DNA from: Nannocystis bainbridge
GTDB taxonomy: Bacteria; Myxococcota_A; Polyangia; Nannocystales; Nannocystaceae
Assembly (NCBI RefSeq): GCF_028368995.1
Contig: NZ_JAQNDL010000002.1
Span: 417,724 to 481,723 of the forward strand
Length of the DNA: 64,000 bases
Reading direction: 5' to 3'
The translations under genes and the position numbers were made by a program. Below are positions 1 to 55,748 of the stretch, piece by piece; the stretch's first letter is position 1; each line of letters starts with the position of its first letter. A model generated the notes under the pieces. The model had not been told where the DNA came from, did no database searches, and worked only from the letters and a program-made list of their open reading frames with translations.

Positions 1-714
1 GACAGCGGGACGTTCGTGATCCAGTTCGACATGGGCGAGGACGAGTGCGATCCGTGGGAGCGGATCTGTCCCGAGGGACAGAAATGCATGCCGTTCGCGG
101 ACGACGGCGGGTCGGCCTGGAATCGCTGGGGTTGTTTTCCGCTCGTGCCCGACCCGGCCGGCCTCGACGAGCCGTGCACGGTCATCGACAGCGCAGTGAG
201 CGGGAAGGACACCTGCGACGACGGGCTGCAGTGCTGGGACGTCGACGAGGACACCGGGATGGGCACGTGCCTGGCGATGTGCACGGGCACGCCGAACGAG
301 CCGATGTGCCCGATCCCGAACACGGACTGCACGGTCACGGCGGGCGACACCCTGGTCCTGTGCCTGCCGAGCTGCGATCCGCTGGCCCAGGACTGTCCGG
401 ACGGCGATCTCTGCCTCCCCAATCCACAAAACCCGGACAGGTTCCTCTGCGTCCTCGACGCGAGCGGCGAGGAAGGTCAGGTCTTCGACGCCTGCGAGTT
501 CCAGAACGCCTGCGACCCGGGCCTGGTGTGCGCACCGGTCGAGCTGGCGACGGAGTGCGACCCGCAGGCGCCCGGCTGTTGTTTGCCGTTCTGCGACGTC
601 TCGACGGCGAACACCTGCCCGGGGCAGGGGCAGGAGTGTCTGGCGTGGTCCGAGATGGGACAGGCGCCGCCAGGGCTCGAGAACGTCGGGTTCTGCGGCA
701 TTCCGTCGCCGTAG
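1..714 (+). CDS. Cys-rich, acidic secreted repeat protein (5' end lies outside window)
   Basis: Open frame runs from base 1 with no stop. Translation is Cys/Asp/Pro/Gly-rich with repeated C-x(n)-C-x-DG / C-P-x-G spacing, typical of myxobacterial Cys-rich repeat proteins. Composition is unlike the Arg/Ala-rich GC-frame artefacts. Confidence 0.6.
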   Translation, partial: DSGTFVIQFDMGEDECDPWERICPEGQKCMPFADDGGSAWNRWGCFPLVPDPAGLDEPCTVIDSAVSGKDTCDDGLQCWDVDEDTGMGTCLAMCTGTPNEPMCPIPNTDCTVTAGDTLVLCLPSCDPLAQDCPDGDLCLPNPQNPDRFLCVLDASGEEGQVFDACEFQNACDPGLVCAPVELATECDPQAPGCCLPFCDVSTANTCPGQGQECLAWSEMGQAPPGLENVGFCGIPSP

Positions 715-16050: not shown

Positions 16051-16143
16051 ATGTGCATCAAGCCCGGCGCGGGAGGCCGACTGCAGCTTCGCGCGTGCGG
16101 GCGCTGGGGCCGGGCGATCGGCACGTCATGATACGCTGCGCCG

Positions 16144-18156
16144 ATGTTCGCTCGGCCCGCGCCCCGTGGCTCTCTCCTCGTCGCGCTGGCGCTCCTCGCC
16201 GGCGGGCCGGCCTGCAAGGACCCCCAGCAGCCGGAGTCGGCAGTGAGCGCGGCCAGCGAGCCCGCCCCCGCGGCGCTCGTCGACGAGCACTTCCGCTTCC
16301 GCATCGACTGGCCCGGCGCGGGCTGGACAATGCTGTCGCGCGACGAGGCGCGGCAGCTCGCCCCGAGCGCGGTCGCCGGGGCTCGCCACGCCTCGGGCGT
16401 GTCCGCGATCGTCCTCGTCAAGTTCGCGCCTGGGCTGACCGTCGACGCGTACGCCGAGAGGCTGCTGCCGACGCTGCTCGACGGCAGGGTCGAGCTGGAG
16501 TCGCGCGAGGTCGTGACGTTCGCCGGCCAGGACGCGCGCCGGATCGTCTACGTCGGTGAGAAAGACGGCCTCACCTACCGCTGGATCTACACCGGCTTCG
16601 TGCGCCAGGACCACGCTTACTGCATCTATGGCTCGGGACTCGCGCACGCGGTGTCACTGCCGGCGCTCGAGCCGTTGCTGCGCGCCTTCTCGCTGCTGCC
16701 CGGGGAGATATCCGCTCCGCCGGTCGTGGCGACGGCCGACCAGCGCGGGCCCGGCTGGCGCGTCCGGGGCGGCGTGTTCGAGAGCGCGGTGTCGGGGCTG
16801 CGCGTCGCGCCGCCGCCGGGCTGGCGGCTGCTCGTCGGCGACGAGCTGATGCGCATGAACCCCGACGCCGAGGTCGGCCTCCAGACGGAGGGGCTCGGCG
16901 CCCAGCTCGTCGTCGTCCCCGAGCGCTTCCGCGGCGACGCGGCGACCTACCGCACGCGGATCCACGGCATGTGGATGGACGATCGCACGACGTCGCCCCT
17001 CGACCCGTGGACGGTCGAGCTCGCCGGCGAGCCGGTCGCGCTCCTGCGCGTCGCCGACGATCGGCTCGAGTACGCGGTCGGCACCCGCGTGGCTGACGGC
17101 TTTGGGCTGCAATTCGCGGCCTCGTATCCGCCCGCGCCGGGCGAAGCGGCGCGCGCCGGGCTCGACGAGGCGTTCGCCGCGGTCGCGCTGGTGGACCCGA
17201 CCGCCCGTGCCACGCTGGGCGAGGAGCTGGCGGCGCTGGGAGACCCTCAGAGCGACATCGGCTCGCGGCACAGCCTGCGCGGCGGGGTCTTCCGCGACTT
17301 CGCGGCGCGCGTCGTCTGGCGCGCGCCGCCGGGCTTCTGGCGCCTGATCGCCCGCGACGACCCCGAATCGCCCGACCGCGAGGTACTGGAGTTCGAGCAC
17401 CCGGCGAGCGGGCTGTGGGGCGGCCTCGTCGTCGCCGAGCGCCCGGGCGTCGACCCGGACGCGTGGCACGCGGAGCGCGTCGCGGAGCGCGGCGGCGTCG
17501 CTACGCACGTGAAGGGCCTCGCGCTCGGGCGCGGCGCGGCCCGGTTCGCGCGCGTGACGATCGCCCACGAGGGGATCGAGGTCGCGTACACGATCGCGAC
17601 CGCCGTCCACGGCGACGCGGCGATCGAGCTGTCGACGCAAGCGTTTGCGAGCGAGCTCGGGCAGGTCGAGGCCGAGCTGGGCCGGGTGTTCGCCGGCCTC
17701 GAGCTCGCGCCGGCGCTACCGATGTCGCGGCAGGACGGCGGCGAGCACGTCGACGAGCGCCGCGGCTTCGCCGTGCGAGTGCCGGCCGGCTGGGAACTCG
17801 CCGAGGAGAAGTTCGGCGACGGCGGTGACGGAGTCGACATGGCGCAGTGGCGCCGCGGCTTCCAGACCTTCCTCGTCATGGTCCTCGACTCCGGTCAGGG
17901 CCCGCTGACCGCTGAGTACGGGCGCAAGCTCTCCGTGCAGTCGATGCGCAAGCTGTTCTCACAGGACGCCGGCGAGCCCCGCGAGACGGTGACGACGCTC
18001 GCCGGCGCCCCGGCCGAGCGCCTGTCGTGGACGGGCGGCCCGGGCGGCGTCGAGCTGGTGACGGCGACGTTCGCCGAGCGCATATACTTGATCGTCGCCG
18101 AGAACCTCGAGCCCGCCGAGTTCGAGGCGACGCTCGCCAGCTTCCGGGCGCTGTGA
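16144..18156 (+). CDS. Large hypothetical lipoprotein (670 aa)
   Basis: Signal LLVALALLAGGPAC. Long non-artefact ORF with internally repeated ~150-aa modules (WRxxxGxFE/WRLL... recurring). No family recognised. Confidence 0.7.
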   Translation: MFARPAPRGSLLVALALLAGGPACKDPQQPESAVSAASEPAPAALVDEHFRFRIDWPGAGWTMLSRDEARQLAPSAVAGARHASGVSAIVLVKFAPGLTVDAYAERLLPTLLDGRVELESREVVTFAGQDARRIVYVGEKDGLTYRWIYTGFVRQDHAYCIYGSGLAHAVSLPALEPLLRAFSLLPGEISAPPVVATADQRGPGWRVRGGVFESAVSGLRVAPPPGWRLLVGDELMRMNPDAEVGLQTEGLGAQLVVVPERFRGDAATYRTRIHGMWMDDRTTSPLDPWTVELAGEPVALLRVADDRLEYAVGTRVADGFGLQFAASYPPAPGEAARAGLDEAFAAVALVDPTARATLGEELAALGDPQSDIGSRHSLRGGVFRDFAARVVWRAPPGFWRLIARDDPESPDREVLEFEHPASGLWGGLVVAERPGVDPDAWHAERVAERGGVATHVKGLALGRGAARFARVTIAHEGIEVAYTIATAVHGDAAIELSTQAFASELGQVEAELGRVFAGLELAPALPMSRQDGGEHVDERRGFAVRVPAGWELAEEKFGDGGDGVDMAQWRRGFQTFLVMVLDSGQGPLTAEYGRKLSVQSMRKLFSQDAGEPRETVTTLAGAPAERLSWTGGPGGVELVTATFAERIYLIVAENLEPAEFEATLASFRAL

Positions 18157-47481: not shown

Positions 47482-48396
47482 CTAGAAGCGCCCGAAAATC
47501 GAAAGGCCGGCGCCCTGGGGCCCCCCGTAGGGCGCAACGCGGGCCCGGTCCGTCGTCGGGCGCAGCTTGCCGCGGGCGACCATGCCGACGCCCACAGCCC
47601 CGAGCACCGCCGCCGAGATTGCGAGGCCGATCTTGGCGCCCCGCGTCCACGTCCCCACGGATCCGAGGTCGCTCATGCGCTGCGCCTGCTCCGGGGTCCG
47701 ATGGCCCGCCTGTTCAATCTCGGCGATCAACGTCTCGAGGTCATTGAACGCCCCGGCGCGGCGGACCTGCACGGGGATGATGGCGAGGGCGGCGAGGGCG
47801 GCCGTGCCAAGCAGGACCCCGCCGGCGATCGTCAGGCCGTTGGCGCGCGGAGGCGTGCGGCCCGTCGTCGGCGCTGTCATCGCGGGCGAAGGTTCGCGCG
47901 CCTGCTCGGGTTCCGCCACGGGGCCGGGCTTCGGCTCGGATGTCGGCTGCACGCAAGGGGGCGCGACGAAGCGCGCGTCACCGCGTGCGGCCGCTTCAGC
48001 GTGCGAGGCGAGGCCGGCGCGCGCTTCGTCGCGGAAGTCCGTCGCCTCGGGCGGCGGGGTGTCCGTGCGCGCGAGGACCCGCTCCGCGGTGGCGAGTAGT
48101 TGGCACAGGTGCGCAGCGTCGTTCGTGCGCTGGTACGCGACGCGGCGGGCGGTCACGGCGAGCGTGAGCAGATCGCCGAGGTCCTTGACGTCGGACGTGT
48201 CCGCGAGTCTCGACTCCACCAACTCGGCAGCGGTGATGAGCCGCTCGAGCGGCGCGAGGTTGTCGGTGGTGATCGTCGGGTCGGCCGCCGTGATCTCGTC
48301 GTTGATCTCGGCGTTGCTGGCCGTGGGCGACAGCGGCGGCGCCGCCAGGGTGGGCCCCGCAAGGACGAGGGAGAGCAAGGCGGCGCGCGCGGGCAT
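47482..48396 (-). CDS. Hypothetical secreted/membrane protein
   Basis: Signal MPARAALLSLVLAGPTLAAPP. Two C-terminal hydrophobic segments. Divergent from the kinase gene. Confidence 0.55.
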   Translation of the reverse strand: MPARAALLSLVLAGPTLAAPPLSPTASNAEINDEITAADPTITTDNLAPLERLITAAELVESRLADTSDVKDLGDLLTLAVTARRVAYQRTNDAAHLCQLLATAERVLARTDTPPPEATDFRDEARAGLASHAEAAARGDARFVAPPCVQPTSEPKPGPVAEPEQAREPSPAMTAPTTGRTPPRANGLTIAGGVLLGTAALAALAIIPVQVRRAGAFNDLETLIAEIEQAGHRTPEQAQRMSDLGSVGTWTRGAKIGLAISAAVLGAVGVGMVARGKLRPTTDRARVAPYGGPQGAGLSIFGRF

Positions 48397-48514
48397 GGGT
48401 TCGTTGTACCACCACGCCGGCCGAACGTGCTCCCGGCGTGGGTTGAAAGGGGGAGGATCGCGGCGGAACGAGGGGGTGAAGCGCGGTCGGGTGTGGGACG
48501 AAACGGGCCTGAAA

Positions 48515-51112
48515 ATGGCAGGAAAGGCATTTAGGCGGTCTTTCTCGCCTGGGGCTGTGGCACTCTTGGCGACGATGGACAGCCCCCTCACCCCACGCTC
48601 CGGGCCCAGGCCGACGTGGCCCATCTACAAGGAAGTCGGCGCCGATTTCATCGGCGAGCTGCTCGACGGGCGCTACAAGATCGTCCGGCGGCTGGCGAAG
48701 GGCGGCATGGCCCACGTGTTCCTGGCCAAGGATCTCACGCGCAAGTGCTACGTAGCGATCAAGCTCCTGCGCGCGTGCAGCCCGGAGGCGCACCGCCGGT
48801 TTGCGGTCGAGGCGGAGATCCTGAGCAACATTCGGCACGAGAACATCGTGCGCGCGATCGCGTTCGGTCACACGGCCGACGAACAGCCCTACATCGCGCT
48901 CGAGCACCTCGACGGCGAGACCTCGTCACAGCGCCTCGCTCTCGGCCCGCTCCCGTGGCGTGAAGTGGCCGAGATCGGCATTCAGATCGCCGACGCGTTG
49001 CACGCCTTGCATCGCGTCGGCGTGATCCACCGCGACGTCAAGCCCGACAACATCATCCTGACGAGAGATGCCGATCGCAGCGCGGCGAAGCTGATCGACC
49101 TCGGCCTGGCGAGCGTCGGGGTTCCGTTCCACGAGGCCCAGGACGCGCGCTTTACCCCGCCCGTGATCCGCCACAAGACCCAGCTCGGTCGGGCGATCGG
49201 CACTCCCGACTACCTGCCGCCGGAGGCGGGGCTCTGCGACGCAAATCCGCTCCTGGACGTGTACCTGCTCGGCGCCACGCTCTACCAGCTCTGCACACAG
49301 CTCCTGCCGAAGCTGGCGGGGCTCCGGCCGATCCACGAGGTGAACCCCAGCGGCGAGGCGCCAGAAGACCTTTCGCGACTTCTCTGCTCGGCGCTCGAGC
49401 CCGAGGTGAGTCATCGGCTACCGTCCGCCGATCACCTCCGCCGCGGACTCGAGGCGATCCTCGCCGCGCACCCGAAGACGCCGCGCCGAGAACACCTGTT
49501 CGGCGGAAGCTTCGACCGATTGGAGGTCCTCGGCGTCGGCGCGAGCGCGGTGGCTTTCCGCGCCTCCGATCGTTGGCTGTCACGCGAGGTCGCGCTCAAG
49601 GTGCTGCGCGACGCGAAGCCGAGCGAGGACGACGCGATTCGCTTTCACCGCGCGGCGAAGATCCTGTCCGCGCTGCGGCACCCGAACATCCCGCAGATCC
49701 ACCACTACGGGATCGAGGGCCGAGAGGCGTTCACGATCACGGAGCTGTGCCCCGGCTCGCCGGCGACGGACGTCGCGGGGCCCGACAAGCACCTGCGCCC
49801 CGACGAGGTAATCGCGGTCGGCCGCCAGCTAGCGAGCGCACTCATGGCCGTGCATGGGGTCGACGTCGTGTATCGCGACCTGCACCCGGGAAACGTCTTG
49901 ATAGCACGCGGAGAAAAGCCGCAGGCGTGGATCTTCGACTTCGACCACGCGCAGGTGTCACCCGCGTTCTACGCCCACCTGACGGAGCGGTGGGCGACGC
50001 CGCCGGAGGCGCGCGTGGAGCCCAAGAGCGAAAAGCCGCTCCGAAACATGGACTACGCGGCGCCGGAGGTTCGCAGCGGTGGGGCGTTCACCGTGGCGAG
50101 CGACGTGTTCGCGCTGGGCCTGTTGCTGTATCGCCTGCTCACGGGCTTGCGCCCGTTCCCGCCCGGCGGCAGCGAGCCCGTACCGGCGCGCAAGGTGTGT
50201 CCCGAGTGCCCGCCCGGCCTCGAGTCTTTGCTCATCGCCATGGTGAACCCGAGCCCGAGCGGCCGGCCCGCGCTGCGCGCCGTGGAGGAAGCGCTCGCGG
50301 CGGAAGAGGAGGAGCTTGAAGCCGTCAAGCGCGAGGAAGCCGAGGCCGAGCAGGAAGCCGCAGCGGCCGCGCCGATCGTCCCGATCGGGCCGACCGTTTC
50401 GAGCGCGACGCCGGAGAGCACACCCGTTGTGAGCGCTGCCGCGGTCGAAGGGCCAACACCTTCGCAAGCGGCCACCGCCGCTGCAGAAGCGCCGCCCGTC
50501 GACCTACCGATCGGCACGTCGGGCGTGACTCGCATCGCCCAGCGCGGCGGCATGTGGGGGCTCCTCGCGCTGATGTTTGCGATCGCGGTTGGCGTCGTCG
50601 TGGGACGCGTGACCGCACCGGGCGATGTGGCAGAGGCGGGGCTGGCGACGCCGCTGGCGATGCTGCCGCCCAGCACGGAAGAGAAGCCGCGCACTTCGAC
50701 CGGCGACGGGCCGGCCAAGCCAGCGACCGCCGAGGTCGCGCCGATGAAGTCGTCGCACGAGGGGACGTTGCCGAAACCAGCCCAGACGACCGACACGACC
50801 GGCAAGCGAACACCGCCGCAGCGCCGCACACAGCCGTCGCCGCGTGGCGCGGTGACGACGGCAGAAGCCACCACCGCAGCACAAGGCGCCCTGCAAGCGC
50901 TGCGCGTTTGCAAGGATGTTCCCGGCGCCATTACGGCCGACCTCGACGTCGTTCGGGGCAAGGGCGCCGTGGTCACGCTCAACGCCCGCGCGCCGGCTCC
51001 CGATGATCCGCGCTACCCCTGGCACGCCTGCGCCCGCGATGCACTCGAGCGTGTGCGCTTCCCGGTGAGCGAGATCGCCGGGCGCGTGCGTGTCCGCCTC
51101 CCGCTCGAGTGA
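48515..51112 (+). CDS. Tandem Ser/Thr protein kinase: two kinase domains (second degenerate/pseudokinase-like), TM helix and extracytoplasmic C-terminal domain
   Basis: Domain 1: YKIVRRLAKGGMAHVFLAKD...VAIKLL...HRDVKPDNIIL...DLGLA...GTPDYLPPE. Domain 2: FDRLEVLGVGASAVAFRASD...VALKVL...YRDLHPGNVLI...DFDHA (HRD->YRD, catalytic-loop Lys->His, DFG->DFD). Then Ala/Pro-rich linker, TM (MWGLLALMFAIAVGVVVG) and a C-terminal domain. Start could alternatively be the ATG at 48575 (MDSPLT). Confidence 0.85.
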   Translation: MAGKAFRRSFSPGAVALLATMDSPLTPRSGPRPTWPIYKEVGADFIGELLDGRYKIVRRLAKGGMAHVFLAKDLTRKCYVAIKLLRACSPEAHRRFAVEAEILSNIRHENIVRAIAFGHTADEQPYIALEHLDGETSSQRLALGPLPWREVAEIGIQIADALHALHRVGVIHRDVKPDNIILTRDADRSAAKLIDLGLASVGVPFHEAQDARFTPPVIRHKTQLGRAIGTPDYLPPEAGLCDANPLLDVYLLGATLYQLCTQLLPKLAGLRPIHEVNPSGEAPEDLSRLLCSALEPEVSHRLPSADHLRRGLEAILAAHPKTPRREHLFGGSFDRLEVLGVGASAVAFRASDRWLSREVALKVLRDAKPSEDDAIRFHRAAKILSALRHPNIPQIHHYGIEGREAFTITELCPGSPATDVAGPDKHLRPDEVIAVGRQLASALMAVHGVDVVYRDLHPGNVLIARGEKPQAWIFDFDHAQVSPAFYAHLTERWATPPEARVEPKSEKPLRNMDYAAPEVRSGGAFTVASDVFALGLLLYRLLTGLRPFPPGGSEPVPARKVCPECPPGLESLLIAMVNPSPSGRPALRAVEEALAAEEEELEAVKREEAEAEQEAAAAAPIVPIGPTVSSATPESTPVVSAAAVEGPTPSQAATAAAEAPPVDLPIGTSGVTRIAQRGGMWGLLALMFAIAVGVVVGRVTAPGDVAEAGLATPLAMLPPSTEEKPRTSTGDGPAKPATAEVAPMKSSHEGTLPKPAQTTDTTGKRTPPQRRTQPSPRGAVTTAEATTAAQGALQALRVCKDVPGAITADLDVVRGKGAVVTLNARAPAPDDPRYPWHACARDALERVRFPVSEIAGRVRVRLPLE

Positions 51113-51140
51113 GCGCCCAGGACGTTGTCTTGACGTAGCG
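51089..51140. repeat. Copy A of a ~52-bp direct repeat covering the last 8 codons and stop of the kinase gene (copy B at 52350..52401). 26-bp perfect core GCGTGTCCGCCTCCCGCTCGAGTGAG
   Basis: Direct comparison: 26/26 identical, then ~65% identity for a further ~26 bp. Confidence 0.8.
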
Positions 51141-51192
51141 GTCGCAGGCGCCGCAGAGGAAGAGGTCTTGGGGTAGAGCGCCGAGTGTTAGC

Positions 51193-51681
51193 CTACTTGA
51201 GCGTGCATTCCTTCAACATCACATTGCCGAACTTGCCGTCGCAGCGGCAGGCCACGGTAACGTCTTGTCCCTTCGAGAGATTGGCCAATTTGGGCAAGGA
51301 CGCATCGTCGAAAAAGGCCTGAACACCCAAGATGTCAAACTTCCCGCCGGTCGACAGGGCCACGTACGGGGTGTCGAGAAGGTCCTTCCCGACGTTGTCG
51401 ACCTTCCCGCTCACTTCCAGGAGCTTGTCCTTGAAACGGTTGTCGGCCGCGATTTCGTTCTTTTCGTACGCCTCGAACAGTTCGCGAGCTGTGACGCGCG
51501 CATCGATCTGCGGCGCTTTAGGAGGCTCAGGGGCTGAAGAAGGTCTTGCGGCGGACGCTGCGGACGTCGAAGTCGTCGGCGAGGTGTTCTTGTCCCTGCT
51601 GATGATCGAAATTACGAACAGCGCGCCGACGCCAACGAGAAGGTAGAAGCCGATGCCGCGCTTCTTTTCTTGATTTGCCAT
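51193..51681 (-). CDS. Membrane-anchored OB-fold (tRNA_anti-like family) protein. Low-GC gene
   Basis: N-terminal TM (IGFYLLVGVGALFVISIIS). C-terminal TARELFEAYEKNEIAADNRFKDKLLEVSGKVDNVGKD...YVAL pattern of the tRNA_anti-like OB-fold lipoprotein family. Confidence 0.7.
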   Translation of the reverse strand: MANQEKKRGIGFYLLVGVGALFVISIISRDKNTSPTTSTSAASAARPSSAPEPPKAPQIDARVTARELFEAYEKNEIAADNRFKDKLLEVSGKVDNVGKDLLDTPYVALSTGGKFDILGVQAFFDDASLPKLANLSKGQDVTVACRCDGKFGNVMLKECTLK

Positions 51682-51972
51682 GTCACGCCACTAACACGGC
51701 TGCCAGTAATGCCGCCACCATCTCGTGCATTACGCCGTTCTCGGGCGCCGATGCTTCAATGAACGCCGTTGGCCGAAGGCGCACTGAGGCGGGGCCGACG
51801 TGGCCGGCGACGCTGGCGGTGTTGCTCGGCACGCAGATGTTGCTGGCGCGCAGGCTTTGCGTGCGTGGCTGTTTCTCAGCTCGGCCTCGCGGCTCGCCGT
51901 GTTCCGACGCCCACTTGCGGGCTCACGGATCCAGCCTTACGGTCGCGGCTCAACCCGGCGAAAGGACACAAC

Positions 51973-52143
51973 ATGAGCAAAGGCGGCGGCAGCAAGGGCG
52001 GTGGCGGTAGCGGGACCAAGGGCGGTGGCGGTAGCGGGACCAAGGGCGGTGGCGGTAGCGGGACCAAGGGCGGCGGCAATTGGCCGAGCACCACGGGGAA
52101 CCCCTCGGGTGGGGGCAGAGGCAACAACCCTCCATCAAAGTAG
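51973..52143 (+). CDS. Gly-rich small repeat protein (56 aa; 3x GGGGSGTKG)
   Basis: ATG preceded by AAAGGA. Encoded by three perfect 27-bp tandem repeats (ggcggtggcggtagcgggaccaagggc). Could be non-coding repeat DNA. Confidence 0.3.
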   Translation: MSKGGGSKGGGGSGTKGGGGSGTKGGGGSGTKGGGNWPSTTGNPSGGGRGNNPPSK

Positions 52144-52349
52144 CAGGCGCAGCCACCAGGAGAGCGAGGTCTTCCGCGGAAGGCCCCGCTCTTTTGTTTG
52201 GCGCCGAGTACTGCTCGCCGCGTCAGGTGTTGCTCGGCGCGAGCACGGGGTCGGCGGGGCGAGTTTGTCCTGGACGTTGGGGCGAAGCTGTTACTCGACG
52301 TGCAGCGACACGGAGCTGTTGCTCAGCGCGACGGGGCAGAGTTTTTTGG

Positions 52350-52401
52350 CGTGTCCGCCTCCCGCTCGAGTGAGTGCTCAAGAGCGCGTCTTGACTTGGC
52401 C
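52350..52401. repeat. Copy B of the kinase-3'-end direct repeat, fused at its right side to an IS5-family transposase fragment (52380..52480)
   Basis: See copy A. Downstream sequence WQQIAAALELSTGELGREPSHRPPRAKS (minus strand) matches the transposase fragment at 53876..54100. Confidence 0.75.
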
Positions 52402-52541
52402 CGCGGCGGCCGGTGACTCGGCTCGCGCCCTAGCTCGCCCGTCGAGAGCTCCAGGGCCGCCGCGATCTGCTGCCACGACGCGGTCCGCTGGGTCCTACAC
52501 ACCGGACGATCCGATCCGTGGCCGTAAGGCGAGGGTCGCGG

Positions 52542-53612
52542 TCAGGCTGGCGCGCGCGGTAGATCAACCGTGAACACGCACCCCGTGCCGGGCACGTCGC
52601 GCACATGGATTGCGCCGCCGCATGCCTGAACGCCCTTCAGACTGATAGCGAGTCCGAGCCCCAGCCCGGCCTTGTTGGCGGATCGCTTTTCGAACGGTCG
52701 GAACATGTCCTCGACGGCCCCCGGCGGCAGTCCGCCGCACTCGTCCTGGACGTCGATCAGCACCCGTTCGTCCGTCGCACGGGCGCAGACCGTGATGTGA
52801 CCGTGGGGGCGGGTGAACTTGAACGCGTTCTGAACCAGGTTAGCGACGACAGAAGCGAGGATCTGGTGGTCGGCCTCGACCACGACGTCGCATGCGCCGG
52901 GATCGACCGAGAGCTTGATGTCGTGTTCCTTGGCCTCGATCGTGGCGACGACCTCGATCTCCTCGATCAATTCTGCGACGCGCACGCGCTCCGTCGTCCC
53001 GATTCCGGCACCAAGGCGAACCTCGGCGAGCGTGCGATCGATGAGATTTCGCATTCGTCGCAGGCTGCGTCCGAGCAAGGTGCCGGTGCTCCCCTGGATC
53101 CCGACGCGGCCGTGCATGAGAGCTTCGAACGTCAGCATCGCGGTGGTGAGCAGGTTGCGCATCTCGTGCGCCAGGAATCCAAGGTGCTCCACACTGGGAC
53201 CGCTGGTCGAGTCGCGCTGGTGCTCGTACTCGGTCACGGCCTGCGCGATGGCGTCGTCGAGGCAGCGGTTGAACGTCTGGAACTCTTCGGCGGTGATGGC
53301 GACACCACGCTCATCCGCCAACTCCGTGACGCTCTGGCAGATGCTGCCATAGTCGTGGACGACTTGGCCGACGGTCAGTCCCATTTGTAGCAGTTCCCGC
53401 CCATGGACGGCCGCGCTGGCGATGACGTCGTGGTGACCCGCCGCGCGCTCGCCCTTCTCGGTGCGCAAGATCGTGACGAGTTGGTCCAGGAAAAAGGGCA
53501 GTCCGTTCCCCATCTCGGCCATCGTGGGAATCGGAACTGAGCGCGCGGCGATCTTCAAGCACGAGCGCTCGAGGATCTCCTCTCGGTGGGTGACGATGAA
53601 CTCGTGCAGCAT
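52542..53612 (-). CDS. Cytoplasmic sensor histidine kinase (no TM; orphan, no adjacent response regulator)
   Basis: H-box HLGFLAHEMRNLLTTA. HATPase_c N/G boxes (VANLVQNAFKFT, DECGGLPPG, GLGLGLAI). The ORF's first codon is TTG at 53633; ATG at 53612 chosen. Confidence 0.85.
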   Translation of the reverse strand: MLHEFIVTHREEILERSCLKIAARSVPIPTMAEMGNGLPFFLDQLVTILRTEKGERAAGHHDVIASAAVHGRELLQMGLTVGQVVHDYGSICQSVTELADERGVAITAEEFQTFNRCLDDAIAQAVTEYEHQRDSTSGPSVEHLGFLAHEMRNLLTTAMLTFEALMHGRVGIQGSTGTLLGRSLRRMRNLIDRTLAEVRLGAGIGTTERVRVAELIEEIEVVATIEAKEHDIKLSVDPGACDVVVEADHQILASVVANLVQNAFKFTRPHGHITVCARATDERVLIDVQDECGGLPPGAVEDMFRPFEKRSANKAGLGLGLAISLKGVQACGGAIHVRDVPGTGCVFTVDLPRAPA

Positions 53613-53875
53613 ATTTTGGGAGTATTGCCCCAAGCATTCGGTGCCTGGGTGTTCCGAAGCTTTCTGTGGCCGCCGCGTGCGTTTGTTTTGCGCTTGTCCG
53701 GCGCGGCCCTATGCGGCTTTGCCGCGGCACCGAGCGGCCGCCCGCCCAGATTGCCTTCGTCCTGGACGCGCGACGGTGGCGTGCACGACGCTCGTGCACG
53801 GCCCTCCGGGGCCGCGCCCCCCCCCGACACGTAGTCACAGGAGCGCGGCGGATACACGAACGGCTAGACCGGGGC

Positions 53876-54100
53876 TGCCGCCTCGACCGCCGTGACGTCG
53901 ATCGGCGTCGCGTTGCGGTGCGACTTGGCCCGCGGGGGCCGGTGGCCCGGCTCGCGCCCGATCTCGGCCGGCGGGAGATCCAGGGCCGCGGCGATCTGCT
54001 GCCACGTGCCATCGCTGCACCAGCGCTCATACCAGCGCCAGCACGTGGTCGAGGCGCCATACTCCGCGGGGATCTCGCTCCACTTCGCGCCGGTGTGCAG
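53876..54100 (-). mobile_element. IS5/IS1182-family transposase N-terminal fragment (DUF4096-like). Second shorter copy at 52380..52480
   Basis: VLHTGAKWSEIPAEYGASTTCWRWYERWCSDGTWQQIAAALDLPPAEIGREPGHRPPRAKS matches the conserved N-terminal domain of IS5-group transposases. No DDE domain follows. ~85-bp nucleotide repeat between the two copies. Confidence 0.6.
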
Positions 54101-54103
54101 GAC

Positions 54104-55469
54104 TCAGCGGACCGCGTCCACCGTGCGGCGGAGGTCGATCCGGGGGCCGCCGCAGCGGCCGCGCGTGCTCTCGACCATCGCCTCGATCGCCTTCCACTGC
54201 GCGTCGCGCATCGGCTCGAACGGCGCCGGCGGGAGCGCGACGATCGGCTGCACCGCCTCCACGATCCGGTCCGTGGCCGTCTCGAGCGCCTGACGGAGGT
54301 AGTCATCCGCGAGGTGCGTGTAGCGCTTCGTGGTTCGCTCCTGCTTGTGGCCCAGCAACTTGCCGACCGTGCTGAGCGATGCGCCGCTCATGATCGCGTC
54401 GCTGGCGAAGGAGTGCCGGAGGTCGTGCAGCCGGACATCGGGGATCCCGGCGGCGGCGCGGATGTTCTCCCACGTGCGATTGATGCCCCGGAGGCGCTTG
54501 CCGTTCGGGGTACGCAGCACGTACCCCGTGCTCGGGTTGCCCGCCTGGTCGTGAATGTGCTTCAGGAGCGCGAGCACGCGGGCAGACACGGGCACCTTGA
54601 GCTGTCCCGTCTTGGTGTCGGGGATGTTCAGGAGCGAGTGTTGGAAGTCGACCATGGCCCACGTGAGCGTCAGGATCTCGTCGCGACGTCGGCCAGTGAG
54701 CGCGAGCAGGTCGATCGCCCAGACGCTCACGAGCTTGACGTGCCCCTTGCGTCCGGCGGGGATCTTGAGCCCGACGAGGATCACCGCGTGCACGCGCTGG
54801 CGCTCCTCGGGGGTCAGGAAGCGCTCGCGCTCCGGAATGGCGAAGCGCTTGACCTTGTGCGCCGGGTTCCGCAGCTCGGCGAGCTCCCAGTCTTCGATGA
54901 TGCGCGTGTAGAGACTACCGATCACGCACAGGACGTAGTTCGCGACGGAAGGGCCCCGCACTTTCTTGAGCTTGGCGTGCAGCGCCGCGATCTCGGCCTT
55001 CTTCACGGTGCGGAAGTCGCGATCTCCGATCGTCGGCAGGATCACCGTCTCGAGGTGTTCCTTGTAGTTCACCGCTGAACCAGGCTTAAGGTGCACGTCG
55101 ACGTAGTCACGGATGAAGCGCTCCACCAGCTCGCGGACCGTCGTGATCTGGGATGGCCGCGATTCCGGCTGTTCCAGTCGAGCGGCCTTGTCCGCGGCTT
55201 GCTGGCCGGATTGTTCATCGGCGCTCGCGCTGACGGCCGCGTTAGTGAGCAGGACAGCGGCACGCCGCCGCGCCTCGTCAATGGACAGTGCGGACCCGAG
55301 CAGTCCGATCTTTCTCCCGGTGGTCCTTGCCGTCCAAGCGGTATCGAACCAGCGCGACTTTCTTCCCCGTAGGCAGAACCCGCAAGATGAAGCCCGGGAG
55401 CGCTTCGCAGGTGACTTCGTACATCGTCGCGCGAGGCTTGCACTCGCGCACGAACGCAGCAGTGATCAT
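54104..55469 (-). pseudogene. int: P4-type tyrosine integrase, frameshifted (N-terminal arm-binding domain in one frame, core-binding and catalytic domains in another)
   Basis: N-terminal YEVTCEALPGFILRVLPTGKKVALVRYRLDGK (P4-integrase N-terminal domain) in frame A stops at 55278. Frame B continues with TTGRKIGLLGSALSIDEARRRAA...RELVERFIRDYVD...HDLRHSFAS...LGHKQERTTKRYTHL (catalytic R..HxxR..Y). A 1-nt shift near 55300 is required to join them. No tRNA gene found adjacent. Confidence 0.75.
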
Positions 55470-55748
55470 GAACCCCTACCTTCCTACCCCTAGTTTTCGA
55501 GACAAATTCGAGCCAAGCTAGAGCGACTTAAGACCTGTCCGAAAGTGCACAATGTCCTGTGCACGGCCGCGAAGGGCGGTTTCAGGACAAGCGTATCACA
55601 TTGGTGATGTGATAGGTGCGATGATTCCACCGCGGGCGTGACGAGGCCCAGCGGGAGAGCCTGTCCCGAAGGACACGTATTCCGATGAGACCCGCGGCAC
55701 ACCGTGCCGGCACTATCCATCGATCTGTCCCGAAGGACAGCCTACGTC

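Follow-up and report, generated by a model that had tools for sequence, protein, structure and literature searches.

Probable remains of FG-GAP-targeting integrase islands beside a duplicated kinase gene end in Nannocystis bainbridge

The end of a protein-coding gene, found twice on either side of GC-poor DNA and next to integrase remains, raises the question whether a site-specific element once entered there. Such an arrangement is present in a 64,000-nucleotide stretch of the Nannocystis bainbridge genome (contig NZ_JAQNDL010000002.1, positions 417,724 to 481,723), indicated here as the window, downstream of a tandem Ser/Thr kinase gene. Sequence comparison within the 64 kb reveals a direct repeat (51088-51139 vs 52349-52400, 83% identity) with a perfect 26-bp core, GCGTGTCCGCCTCCCGCTCGAGTGAG, present in exactly two copies (chance expectation: 0). 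The first-pass annotation had taken these as the traces of an element that inserted at the kinase 3' end, rebuilt it, and later decayed through IS insertion. That the region contains decayed, integrase-associated island DNA of atypical composition, with cargo absent from three sister species, is borne out. As to its origin, the evidence leans, on balance, towards a different reading: the region would represent the worn remains of integrase islands targeting FG-GAP genes, the kinase-end duplicate being a rearrangement scar and not an att site. The features are reported in Table 1.

Table 1. Features of the region between the kinase gene and the FG-GAP junction (window coordinates)
Feature	Position	Strand	Description
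Tandem Ser/Thr kinase gene (K)	47567..51112	+	two Pkinase stretches; syntenic left anchor
Copy A	51088..51139	+	last 8 kinase codons, stop and start of gene X remnant
Gene X remnant	51113..51166	-	about 18 codons of 3' end; read from alignment; stop mutated
OB-fold (tRNA_anti-like) membrane-anchored protein gene	51193..51681	-	PF12869, E=7.9e-23
Five same-strand copies of a ~14-nt motif, CGCGCCGAGCAACA	51816..52331	-	upstream of OB gene, flanking Gly-rich ORF
Gly-rich small ORF	51973..52143	+	56 aa; 24-bp x3.8 tandem repeat
Copy B	52349..52395	+	ectopic 47-nt duplicate of kinase/gene X end junction
Scraps of second integrase copy (int')	52393..52525	-	three pieces collinear with integrase gene
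int' tail region	52393-52477	-	88% identical to 53922-54006
int' inverted piece	52477-52505	inverted	encodes DAVRWVLHTG; 93% identical to 54090-54118
int' third piece	52506-52525	-	encodes TATDRIV; 95% identical to 54261-54280
Orphan cytoplasmic histidine kinase gene (HK)	52542..53612	-	HisKA and HATPase_c
One REP-like hairpin unit, CGTGCACGACGCTCGTGCACG	53769..53803		arrays downstream of integrase in N. radixulma (L001) and N. pusilla (L003)
Integrase pseudogene	53864..55469	-	Arm-DNA-bind_3, SAM-like, catalytic and C-terminal DUF4096 domains
Conserved integrase leader (P' arm)	55470..55596	-	two tandem arm-type-like sites, 55497-55505 and 55508-55516
attL-type junction	55597..55680	-	core ATCACCAATGTG at 55597-55608, then FG-GAP remnant

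PF00589 (Phage_integrase) is matched by the ORF at 54107-55126 (E=4.7e-24) and by the N. radixulma ortholog (E=9e-23), a single intact ORF of 534 aa, which also carries DUF4096 (E=3e-21). PF13356 (Arm-DNA-bind_3) is annotated on most integrase homologs; in the N. radixulma ortholog its score is borderline (residues 3-78, 27.3 bits vs a cut-off of 27.0), and no match is found in the 63-aa N-terminal ORF of the window taken alone, which is cut by the frameshift. The P4-type assignment made at first holds, based on the Arm-DNA-bind_3 domain, while the single frameshift becomes two lesions: an additional base in the T3 run at 55310-55312 and a TGG to TGA change at 54104-54106. The remaining frame is open; as a whole, the window integrase lacks an intact reading frame.

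The segment 53876-54100, initially described as an IS5 fragment, is in frame with the integrase and is its C-terminal DUF4096 domain. This architecture is common to more than 100 protein clusters: the best 120 homologs listed are mostly about 530 aa long, and almost all of them combine PF00589 and PF13340, usually with PF13356. An IS5 insertion sequence was considered and rejected: PF13340 occurs alone and in frame, the intact N. radixulma ortholog is one ORF, no DDE transposase domain is matched in any ORF scanned, and there are neither IS ends nor a separate reading frame. The other supposed IS5 fragment, fused to copy B, corresponds to the int' scraps, whose inverted piece retains TGG where the main integrase copy has TGA.

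The target of the integrase is indicated by its relatives. Every informative one is placed at a WNQHxYxITN motif close to an FG-GAP gene's 3' end. In three loci (L007, L008, L018), and likewise in 20 of the 27 evaluable metagenome loci, about 110 nt separate the integrase from an upstream FG-GAP gene that ends with the motif, four further residues and the stop codon. FG-GAP identity and integrase identity do not track each other. The family core, 12 nt long, is ATCACCAATGT. This motif, and not the kinase 3' end as first proposed, is the target of the family. In the window, an exact copy of the core is found at 55597-55608, at a junction with 28 FG-GAP codons (residues 564-591 of the target gene, reaching 55680), located at the integrase 5' end, on the side away from the kinase.

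Both island ends are visible at one locus only, the metagenomic locus L045, where a complete island runs from attL across 8.2 kb to arm-type sites, a further copy of the 12-nt core and, beyond it, the displaced 3' part of the FG-GAP gene. Membership of the window region in the FG-GAP-targeting integrase-DUF4096 islands is indicated by the junction between leader and FG-GAP remnant, with its exact core; a distal attR (P arm, core, FG-GAP 3' part) is absent between kinase and integrase, and was presumably deleted. A distal att site does not survive in N. radixulma or N. pusilla either, and the far island boundary is therefore inferred, not directly observed. In N. radixulma an FG-GAP gene is intact and two core copies are separated by 170 nt, for which the only explanation we can offer is that integration took place just downstream and that the other lineages then underwent deletion from core to core.

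Two of the three sister species, N. radixulma and N. pusilla, have the integrase block in synteny, at 88-90% identity: the island is therefore old and predates the species. A recent integration event was rejected on the same ground. In both species the orthologous integrase is accompanied by different cargo; the third sister locus (L002) lacks an orthologous integrase, and features a truncated FG-GAP gene and a different gene X allele. The right flank, from 55680 onward, is not syntenic with any of the three.

The OB-fold gene, the Gly-rich gene and HK are missing from all three sister species. Among isolates, the OB gene is found only in N. bainbridge; homologs come, besides, from metagenomes, and in two loci (L009, L010) the gene is again near a kinase ortholog. 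L010, a relative, repeats the layout of the window (integrase tail, motif cluster, OB gene, decayed integrase scrap, then kinase), in line with the island reading. HK, which has no match in the sister loci, is specific to the N. bainbridge lineage; its initial description as orphan cytoplasmic cargo stands, with no response regulator found adjacent to it. Pfam matches are absent from its N-terminal 150 residues and from the Gly-rich ORF. The fall in GC content noted right after copy A is real, if uneven: values range from 57.7% in the OB gene, through 64.8% in HK and 67.8% in the integrase, to 71.8% in the patchwork, vs 70-72% in the flanks. Since the OB gene is similarly GC-poor in a distant relative (59.2%, with flanks at 74-77%), the drop is largely a property of this gene.

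The tandem kinase gene lies outside the island. Its orthologs in the three sister species are 88-91% identical, and its C-terminus is kept to the last residues in distant orthologs with no integrase nearby; the gene end is therefore native, and was not reconstituted by an element as had been suggested. Copy A is continuous with native sequence (51033-51150, identity to sister species 0.89-0.92) and is the native junction with gene X, a convergent gene encoding HTH, coiled coil and TM segments, intact in N. pusilla and L002, whose homologs adjoin integrases in 7 metagenome loci. Copy B is a second copy of this junction: the duplication reported at first is found with its core, while the effective duplicate is shorter, 47 nt. 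The kinase ends of N. radixulma and N. pusilla match this duplicate at 96-98% identity. On the left it begins at a sharp, arbitrary edge; on the right it meets the integrase scrap at a 3-nt microhomology, GAC. Outside the core, copy B matches N. pusilla at 20 of 21 positions, copy A at 15 of 21. Window-private substitutions amount to 7.3% over the last 685 nt of the kinase gene vs about 3.7% upstream, a weak excess (p ~0.035), falling within a low-complexity linker. As originally described, the two copies enclose the OB-fold gene and the Gly-rich ORF. Neither core copy adjoins the integrase leader.

In the reading that we favour, 51113-55680 would consist of decayed islands of one family, lying between the kinase and a former FG-GAP gene. 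The integrase would act at the 12-nt core within the WNQHxYxITN coding motif of FG-GAP beta-propeller genes, and integration would truncate the target gene, placing the integrase gene directly downstream of the junction. One nearly whole, doubly inactivated integrase, with leader and FG-GAP junction, would be kept at 53864-55680, and three collinear scraps of a second, older copy at 52393-52525. Islands may have accreted in tandem at the FG-GAP site, older material being pushed kinase-ward and eroded by deletions. Copy B is most likely an illegitimate-recombination scar, left by the import of the OB-fold/Gly-rich segment. On the preferred path, the 3' part of the kinase gene would have been imported, together with the OB-fold and Gly-rich genes, from a sister lineage, through a homologous left crossover inside the kinase gene and an illegitimate right join at 52348/52349 that left the final 26 nt of the recipient's kinase gene stranded; the collapse of a tandem duplication would leave the same picture. 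The path is drawn from sequence anatomy; the genomes compared include neither a donor nor one with the predicted pre-event arrangement. A perfect 26-nt core beside a diverged arm is also expected from an att or Campbell crossover, which counts against it.

Entry of a site-specific element that rebuilt the kinase 3' end, copies A and B being attL and attR and either the integrase at 53864-55469 or its decayed twin the catalyst, would account for a perfect 26-bp core bordered by unrelated sequence at one end and by a diverged arm at the other, for the GC-poor DNA between the copies, missing from sister species, and for the integrase remains directly beside copy B. Yet the core and target of the family are different and well replicated, at the FG-GAP motif by the integrase 5' end, and copy B meets, via three nucleotides of microhomology, the truncated 3' tail of an integrase gene, not a leader or arm. 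Moreover, no recombinase is encoded between A and B, the kinase end is native, no third copy of the core occurs near the integrase end, where a search had been proposed, or elsewhere in the 64-kb window, and neither kinase-end sequence nor core was found at paralogous integrase loci. Site-specific integration at the kinase end is unlikely, and we give this account little credence. Slimmer still is the chance that copy B arrived as cargo, an older island beside the kinase gene of another lineage having undergone aberrant excision, taken along 26 nt of that gene and the end of gene X, and later re-integrated here. In the integrase reading direction, the distal end of the int' scraps is exactly where copy B lies, and copy B is nearer to the N. 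pusilla and N. radixulma sequence than to copy A; the int' tail scrap, however, is nearer the integrase of the window (88%) than those of the same two species (80%), and aberrant excision would have to be followed by re-integration without a distal att site.

A stronger competitor, although itself rather doubtful, is a local tandem duplication with no entry of foreign DNA, which would have begun 26 nt ahead of the kinase stop and taken in the OB-fold and Gly-rich genes. A microhomology-mediated deletion would then have removed nearly all the second copy together with the final 56 nt of the integrase copy next to it. At L010, the integrase tail is directly followed by the motif cluster and the OB gene, and a kinase-OB-motifs-integrase order could therefore be ancestral. 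Junction microhomology is only 0-3 nt, and partial duplications of the integrase tail recur within the family (L010, L083). Two events are needed, however, and neither the presence of six private changes in the non-core part of copy A, vs one in copy B, nor the patchy distribution of the OB gene is explained.

The islands resemble P4-type (Arm-DNA-bind_3/DUF4102) genomic islands and satellite prophages in the order of integrase domains (arm-binding N-terminus, SAM-like, catalytic), in the integrase gene directly beside one att site, in the arm-type repeats of both arms, and in a core which is a short identity segment common to attL and attR, as seen here in L045. They differ in the extra C-terminal DUF4096 domain, homologous to the N-terminus of IS5-family transposases, and in the target, a protein-coding motif of the multi-copy FG-GAP family instead of a tRNA gene; no tRNA gene is found in the 64-kb window. 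Coding genes are also targeted by phage 21/e14 at icd, SGI1 at trmE and GIsul2 at guaA. Coding-gene-targeting integrases likewise insert site-specifically at a conserved coding sequence, the element providing a substitute gene end; here, in contrast, the substitute is just 5-6 codons, the FG-GAP protein loses about 36 or more residues, and the target is a family of paralogs, so that several islands are possible per genome (N. radixulma has three). A further protein-coding target is that of the dusA-specific integrases (PMC4482086). With the N-terminal domain of IS5-family (IS427/IS1031-type) transposases (PF13340, NF033580) the likeness is limited to integrase residues 420-497, matching model positions 5-82: DDE domain, IS ends and separate ORF are lacking, and the domain is fused in frame, as in the homologs listed. 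Homology-facilitated illegitimate recombination and collapse of tandem duplications are general mechanisms. They share with copy B one homologous side, an arbitrary join with 0-3 nt microhomology on the other, and a short stranded resident duplicate; in the present case, unlike those, the mechanism is deduced from anatomy alone.

What the analysis brings for the window is mainly correction: an apparently neat att duplication is read as a secondary scar, and the "IS5 fragments" prove to be an integrase domain, a useful warning when islands and IS elements are annotated automatically in high-GC genomes. Tentatively, the islands may define an apparently undescribed P4-like recombinase family with an IS5-type DUF4096 domain, hosted by Nannocystaceae and related uncultured bacteria and inserting at WNQHxYxITN of FG-GAP genes; in the boldest form of this reading, some copies would move as integrase-only, IS-like units, and DUF4096 might help read the target. 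Insertion would truncate the target, and a genome could hold several islands, or islands in tandem; what the copies have in common comes to only about 1.8 kb (core, leader, integrase). If confirmed, the family would explain some turnover of surface beta-propeller genes and of small cargo (regulators, kinases, defence-type genes) in myxobacterial genomes, and would add a well-defined attB to the site-specific tools for myxobacteria.

Finally, a terminator-like hairpin is found at 52168-52185, 3' of the Gly-rich ORF. The CGCGCCGAGCAACA motif cluster, which includes 4 of the 11 minus-sense TGTTGC hexamers of the 64 kb, recurs in two other loci: at L010 it lies upstream of the OB gene, at L025 downstream of the integrase.

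The segment 53876-54100, read in the first-pass annotation as an IS5 fragment, is a domain of the integrase itself, as shown by its ortholog in L001, one of the three orthologous comparator loci obtained by scanning the kinase protein against species-representative genomes (L001, N. radixulma; L002, N. punicea; L003, N. pusilla). Translation of the L001 block gives one intact 534-aa ORF, and the homologs listed have the same architecture: the best 120, mostly about 530 aa long, contain PF00589 and PF13340 in almost all cases, PF13356 in most. In the window, Pfam places DUF4096 positions 1-36 at the C-terminus of a 340-aa integrase ORF and positions 40-75 in the next ORF. Both this 340-aa ORF and the OB-fold protein of the window have counterparts of 100% identity in Nannocystis bainbridge / Nannocystis sp. 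bb15-2, the source of the window. The integrase DUF4096 can likewise be aligned with the N-terminal part of the IS5 transposase model of NCBIfam.

DUF4096 is cut off from the window integrase by a TGG to TGA change at 54104-54106; the codon is TGG in L001, in L003, in L007 (a paralogous N. radixulma locus) and in the window's own second copy. The frameshift reported earlier corresponds to one added base in the run 55310-55312 and is not the single lesion it was taken to be; outside these two positions the frame is open. The L003 integrase carries a different frameshift. A block of about 1.77 kb, extending from 53863, 1 nt past the stop codon, to 55611-55629, is conserved among window, L001 and L003 (88-90%) and in the N. 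radixulma paralogs L007 and L008 (77-87%). A REP-like palindromic unit, GTGCACGA-GCG-TCGTGCAC, is present once in the window, and in arrays 3' of the integrase in L001 and L003.

The outer end of the block is coding sequence for the motif WNQHTYH(V/I)TNV. At this motif, the L003 block is fused to an FG-GAP gene, of which the window retains residues 564-591 (55597-55680). In both N. radixulma paralogs and in a 68%-identical relative (L018), the integrase lies about 110 nt 3' of an FG-GAP gene ending in WNQHxYxITNxxxx-stop. An FG-GAP gene lies just upstream of the integrase, in the same arrangement, in 20 of the 27 evaluable metagenome loci; a few metagenome integrase copies are found in other contexts. 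FG-GAP identity is decoupled from integrase identity: the gene is therefore regarded as the target, and its interpretation as island cargo was rejected.

A complete island is found in the metagenome locus L045, composed of attL, the integrase gene, a cargo region of 8.2 kb, a set of three arm-type sites, a 12-nt core and the displaced FG-GAP 3' part, which features a CARDB domain. Arm-type sites (TTGTCNCGA) are present in both arms, the three distal ones resembling two in the leader. The core has one exact match in the window, at 55597-55608. Judging from these sequences, it may be argued that the attachment site is to be reassigned to the FG-GAP motif, ATCACCAATGT, and not to the 26-bp kinase core. 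Among the loci searched, only L045 features a displaced FG-GAP 3' end and core repeat downstream of the integrase gene: none was found within 10 kb 3' of that gene, whether in the window, in L003, L007, L008 and L018 or in most metagenome loci. The distal site is undetectable in the window, L001 and L003, and the right flank of the window, past 55680, shows no synteny with any sister species.

Location of the features described in the window and in related loci
Feature	Location	Remarks
L001 integrase, Arm-DNA-bind_3	residues 3-78	
L001 integrase, SAM-like		
L001 integrase, Phage_integrase	residues 244-388	
L001 integrase, DUF4096	residues 420-492	complete, E=3e-21
L045 island ends	L045:1352-1441 and L045:11230-11400	attL and attR, common core ATCACCAATGTC
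int' piece 1		85 nt, 88% identical to 53922-54006
int' piece 2		29 nt, inverted, 93% identical to 54090-54118
int' piece 3		20 nt, 95% identical to 54261-54280
Motif cluster, about 14 nt, CGCGCCGAGCAACA	window 51816-51852 and 52224-52331; L010:85-360; L025	same strand; upstream of the OB-fold gene, flanking the Gly-rich ORF
REP-like units	window 53769-53803; L001:14289-14558 and 16059-16240; L003:15336-15640	single unit in the window
Integrase 3'-tail duplications	L083:~630-900; L010:6-52 and 1095-1141	partial
Segment between core copies	L001:18060-18230	170 nt; imperfect cores TTTGTGACGTG and TTGGTGATGTG
Same position, 170 nt missing	L003:17445-17477; window 55597-55629	crossover points differ slightly
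Palindrome TGTCCCGAAGGACA	window 55662-55675 and 55728-55741	between FG-GAP remnant and DUF1552 gene stop
Core-like 12-mer ATCACGAACGTC	window 9-20, minus strand	encodes I-T-N-V

Some minor features of the target region may be added. In L001, where the FG-GAP gene is intact, 170 nt separate two imperfect core copies; these 170 nt are missing from L003 and from the window, which suggests a recurrent core-by-core deletion. Elements akin to the palindrome found past the FG-GAP remnant (GTCC/GGAC) are present in the integrase leader. The core-like 12-mer within the first 20 nt of the window could be an FG-GAP-type site that is not occupied. Metagenome loci L025-L104 include dozens of distinct contigs with family integrases from a single series of wastewater samples (Ga0075163). 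In many of them the contig begins inside the integrase or some 240-250 nt before it, a pattern compatible with assembly breaks at a multi-copy element or at a repetitive FG-GAP target.

The fragment adjoining copy B, the second copy of the kinase end, had also been assigned to IS5. Instead, it is made up of three pieces, all from a second copy of the integrase (int', 52393-52525); they retain gene order and are therefore read as a real copy, worn by deletions and one small inversion; random templated patches are less likely, since the three pieces are collinear. A tandem integrase pair, one member decayed, occurs in two lineages, the window and the metagenome contigs L009 and L010; such recurrent pairs would fit successive islands accreting at the FG-GAP site. 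At unrelated loci, too, parts of the integrase 3' tail are duplicated directly 3' of family integrases; such tail scraps seem to arise repeatedly as a by-product in the integrase-DUF4096 family.

The fall in GC content past the first copy of the kinase end, copy A, is present but uneven, the lowest part being the OB-fold gene (57.7%); in a distant relative the gene has 59.2%, between flanks of 74-77%. The OB-fold gene has no homolog among the other sequenced Nannocystis species, and is again found near a kinase ortholog in L009 and L010, in the order integrase tail, GCAACA-type motif cluster, OB-fold gene, decayed integrase scrap, another gene, kinase; the module lies there between two direct copies of a 47-nt stretch of integrase tail. 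The motif cluster, kept in the distant relative, is also found 3' of another family integrase (L025): operator and arm sites are possible roles. Gene X, convergent to the kinase gene, is complete in L002 and L003 and codes for a product with an HTH_31 domain, a coiled coil and, at the C-terminus, a TM segment; its homologs lie 0.5-2.5 kb from integrases in seven metagenome loci, and it is therefore island DNA too. All DNA that separates the kinase gene from the FG-GAP remnant belongs to the integrase-DUF4096 island family. An exact-protein look-up of the histidine kinase gave no match; its annotated start is probably different.

Homology of the window to the three comparators extends through the kinase gene and ends at about 51150 in all three. 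The duplication of the kinase end is borne out: 51088-51139 and 52349-52400 are 83% identical, with a 26-bp perfect core, and the repeat occurs twice in 64 kb and never in 100 shuffles. The usable duplicate is 47 nt long (52349-52395), spanning the kinase gene's final 26 nt, with the final 6-7 codons of gene X on the opposite strand. Copy A runs on into native sequence, where about 18 codons of gene X are kept; copy B begins abruptly on the left, while its right side passes, via the common trinucleotide GAC, into the integrase fragment. A common, att-like breakpoint just past the kinase stop in all four species was rejected: a 6-nt gap allows alignment of the window to L001 across the roughly 18 codons, and the breakpoints therefore differ. 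Their clustering near the stop reflects only the need for an intact kinase end. A shared terminator was ruled out, as no terminator-like site is predicted at the repeat and no further copies exist.

The first-pass annotation had placed att sites of an integrated element at the kinase end, which the element would have rebuilt. An att or Campbell crossover would indeed also leave a perfect core next to a diverged arm; yet the interval between the copies encodes no other recombinase (ORFs, Pfam), and this reading is quite improbable. The 26-bp core is absent from every paralogous integrase locus and occurs once in each sister species; a third copy was found neither in the window, at up to 3 mismatches, nor in JGI metagenomes with a 24-mer query. 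The 9-mer TTGTCTTGA of copy A, as a candidate arm-type site, has a single one-mismatch match, no more than expected by chance. A kinase C-terminus query for further empty-site comparators returned only distant homologs lacking the island; since distant orthologs with no nearby integrase keep the same C-terminus to the last residues, the element did not rebuild the kinase end. Copy B, moreover, adjoins an integrase gene at its truncated 3' tail, and not at a leader or arm. The absence of the core at paralogous loci, the native kinase end and the position of copy B argue against an att site for the integrase-DUF4096 family.

What remains is that the duplicated kinase end would be a product of illegitimate recombination. 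Over the 21 non-core nt, copy B matches L003 at 20 positions, copy A at 15; over the final 685 nt of the kinase gene, substitutions private to the window reach about twice their upstream frequency, a weak excess (p ~0.035) in a linker region. Copy B being nearer to L003, this excess and the patchy occurrence of the OB-fold gene favour an import of the 3' part of the kinase gene, with the OB-fold and Gly-rich genes: a homologous crossover inside the kinase gene would be accompanied by an illegitimate join at 52348|52349, stranding the resident 26 nt of the kinase. The main alternative to import is a tandem duplication, later collapsed.

The element works like P4-type integrase islands, and its domains test as P4-type; unlike them, its integrase family features a DUF4096 fusion and a coding, multi-copy target. 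No publication on the DUF4096-integrase link was found in the literature; as regards a protein-coding target, the nearest parallel in print is a dusA-integrase study (PMC4482086). The window copy being a pseudogene remnant, the local finding is ordinary: the integrase family from which it stems is of greater interest.

The kinase gene shows a mosaic pattern of divergence: L002 is the outlier at 48660-49859, with 79 private differences, and the window at 50460-50832, with 77-84% identity and indels, which suggests recombination among Nannocystis lineages. Finally, at two loci (L016:9452-12861, L017:7799-11400), a gene pair for an OLD-TOPRIM ATPase and a UvrD helicase lies 3' of sequences distantly homologous to the C-terminal region of the kinase; the pair being Gabija-like, the position downstream of the kinase is variable across the wider group.
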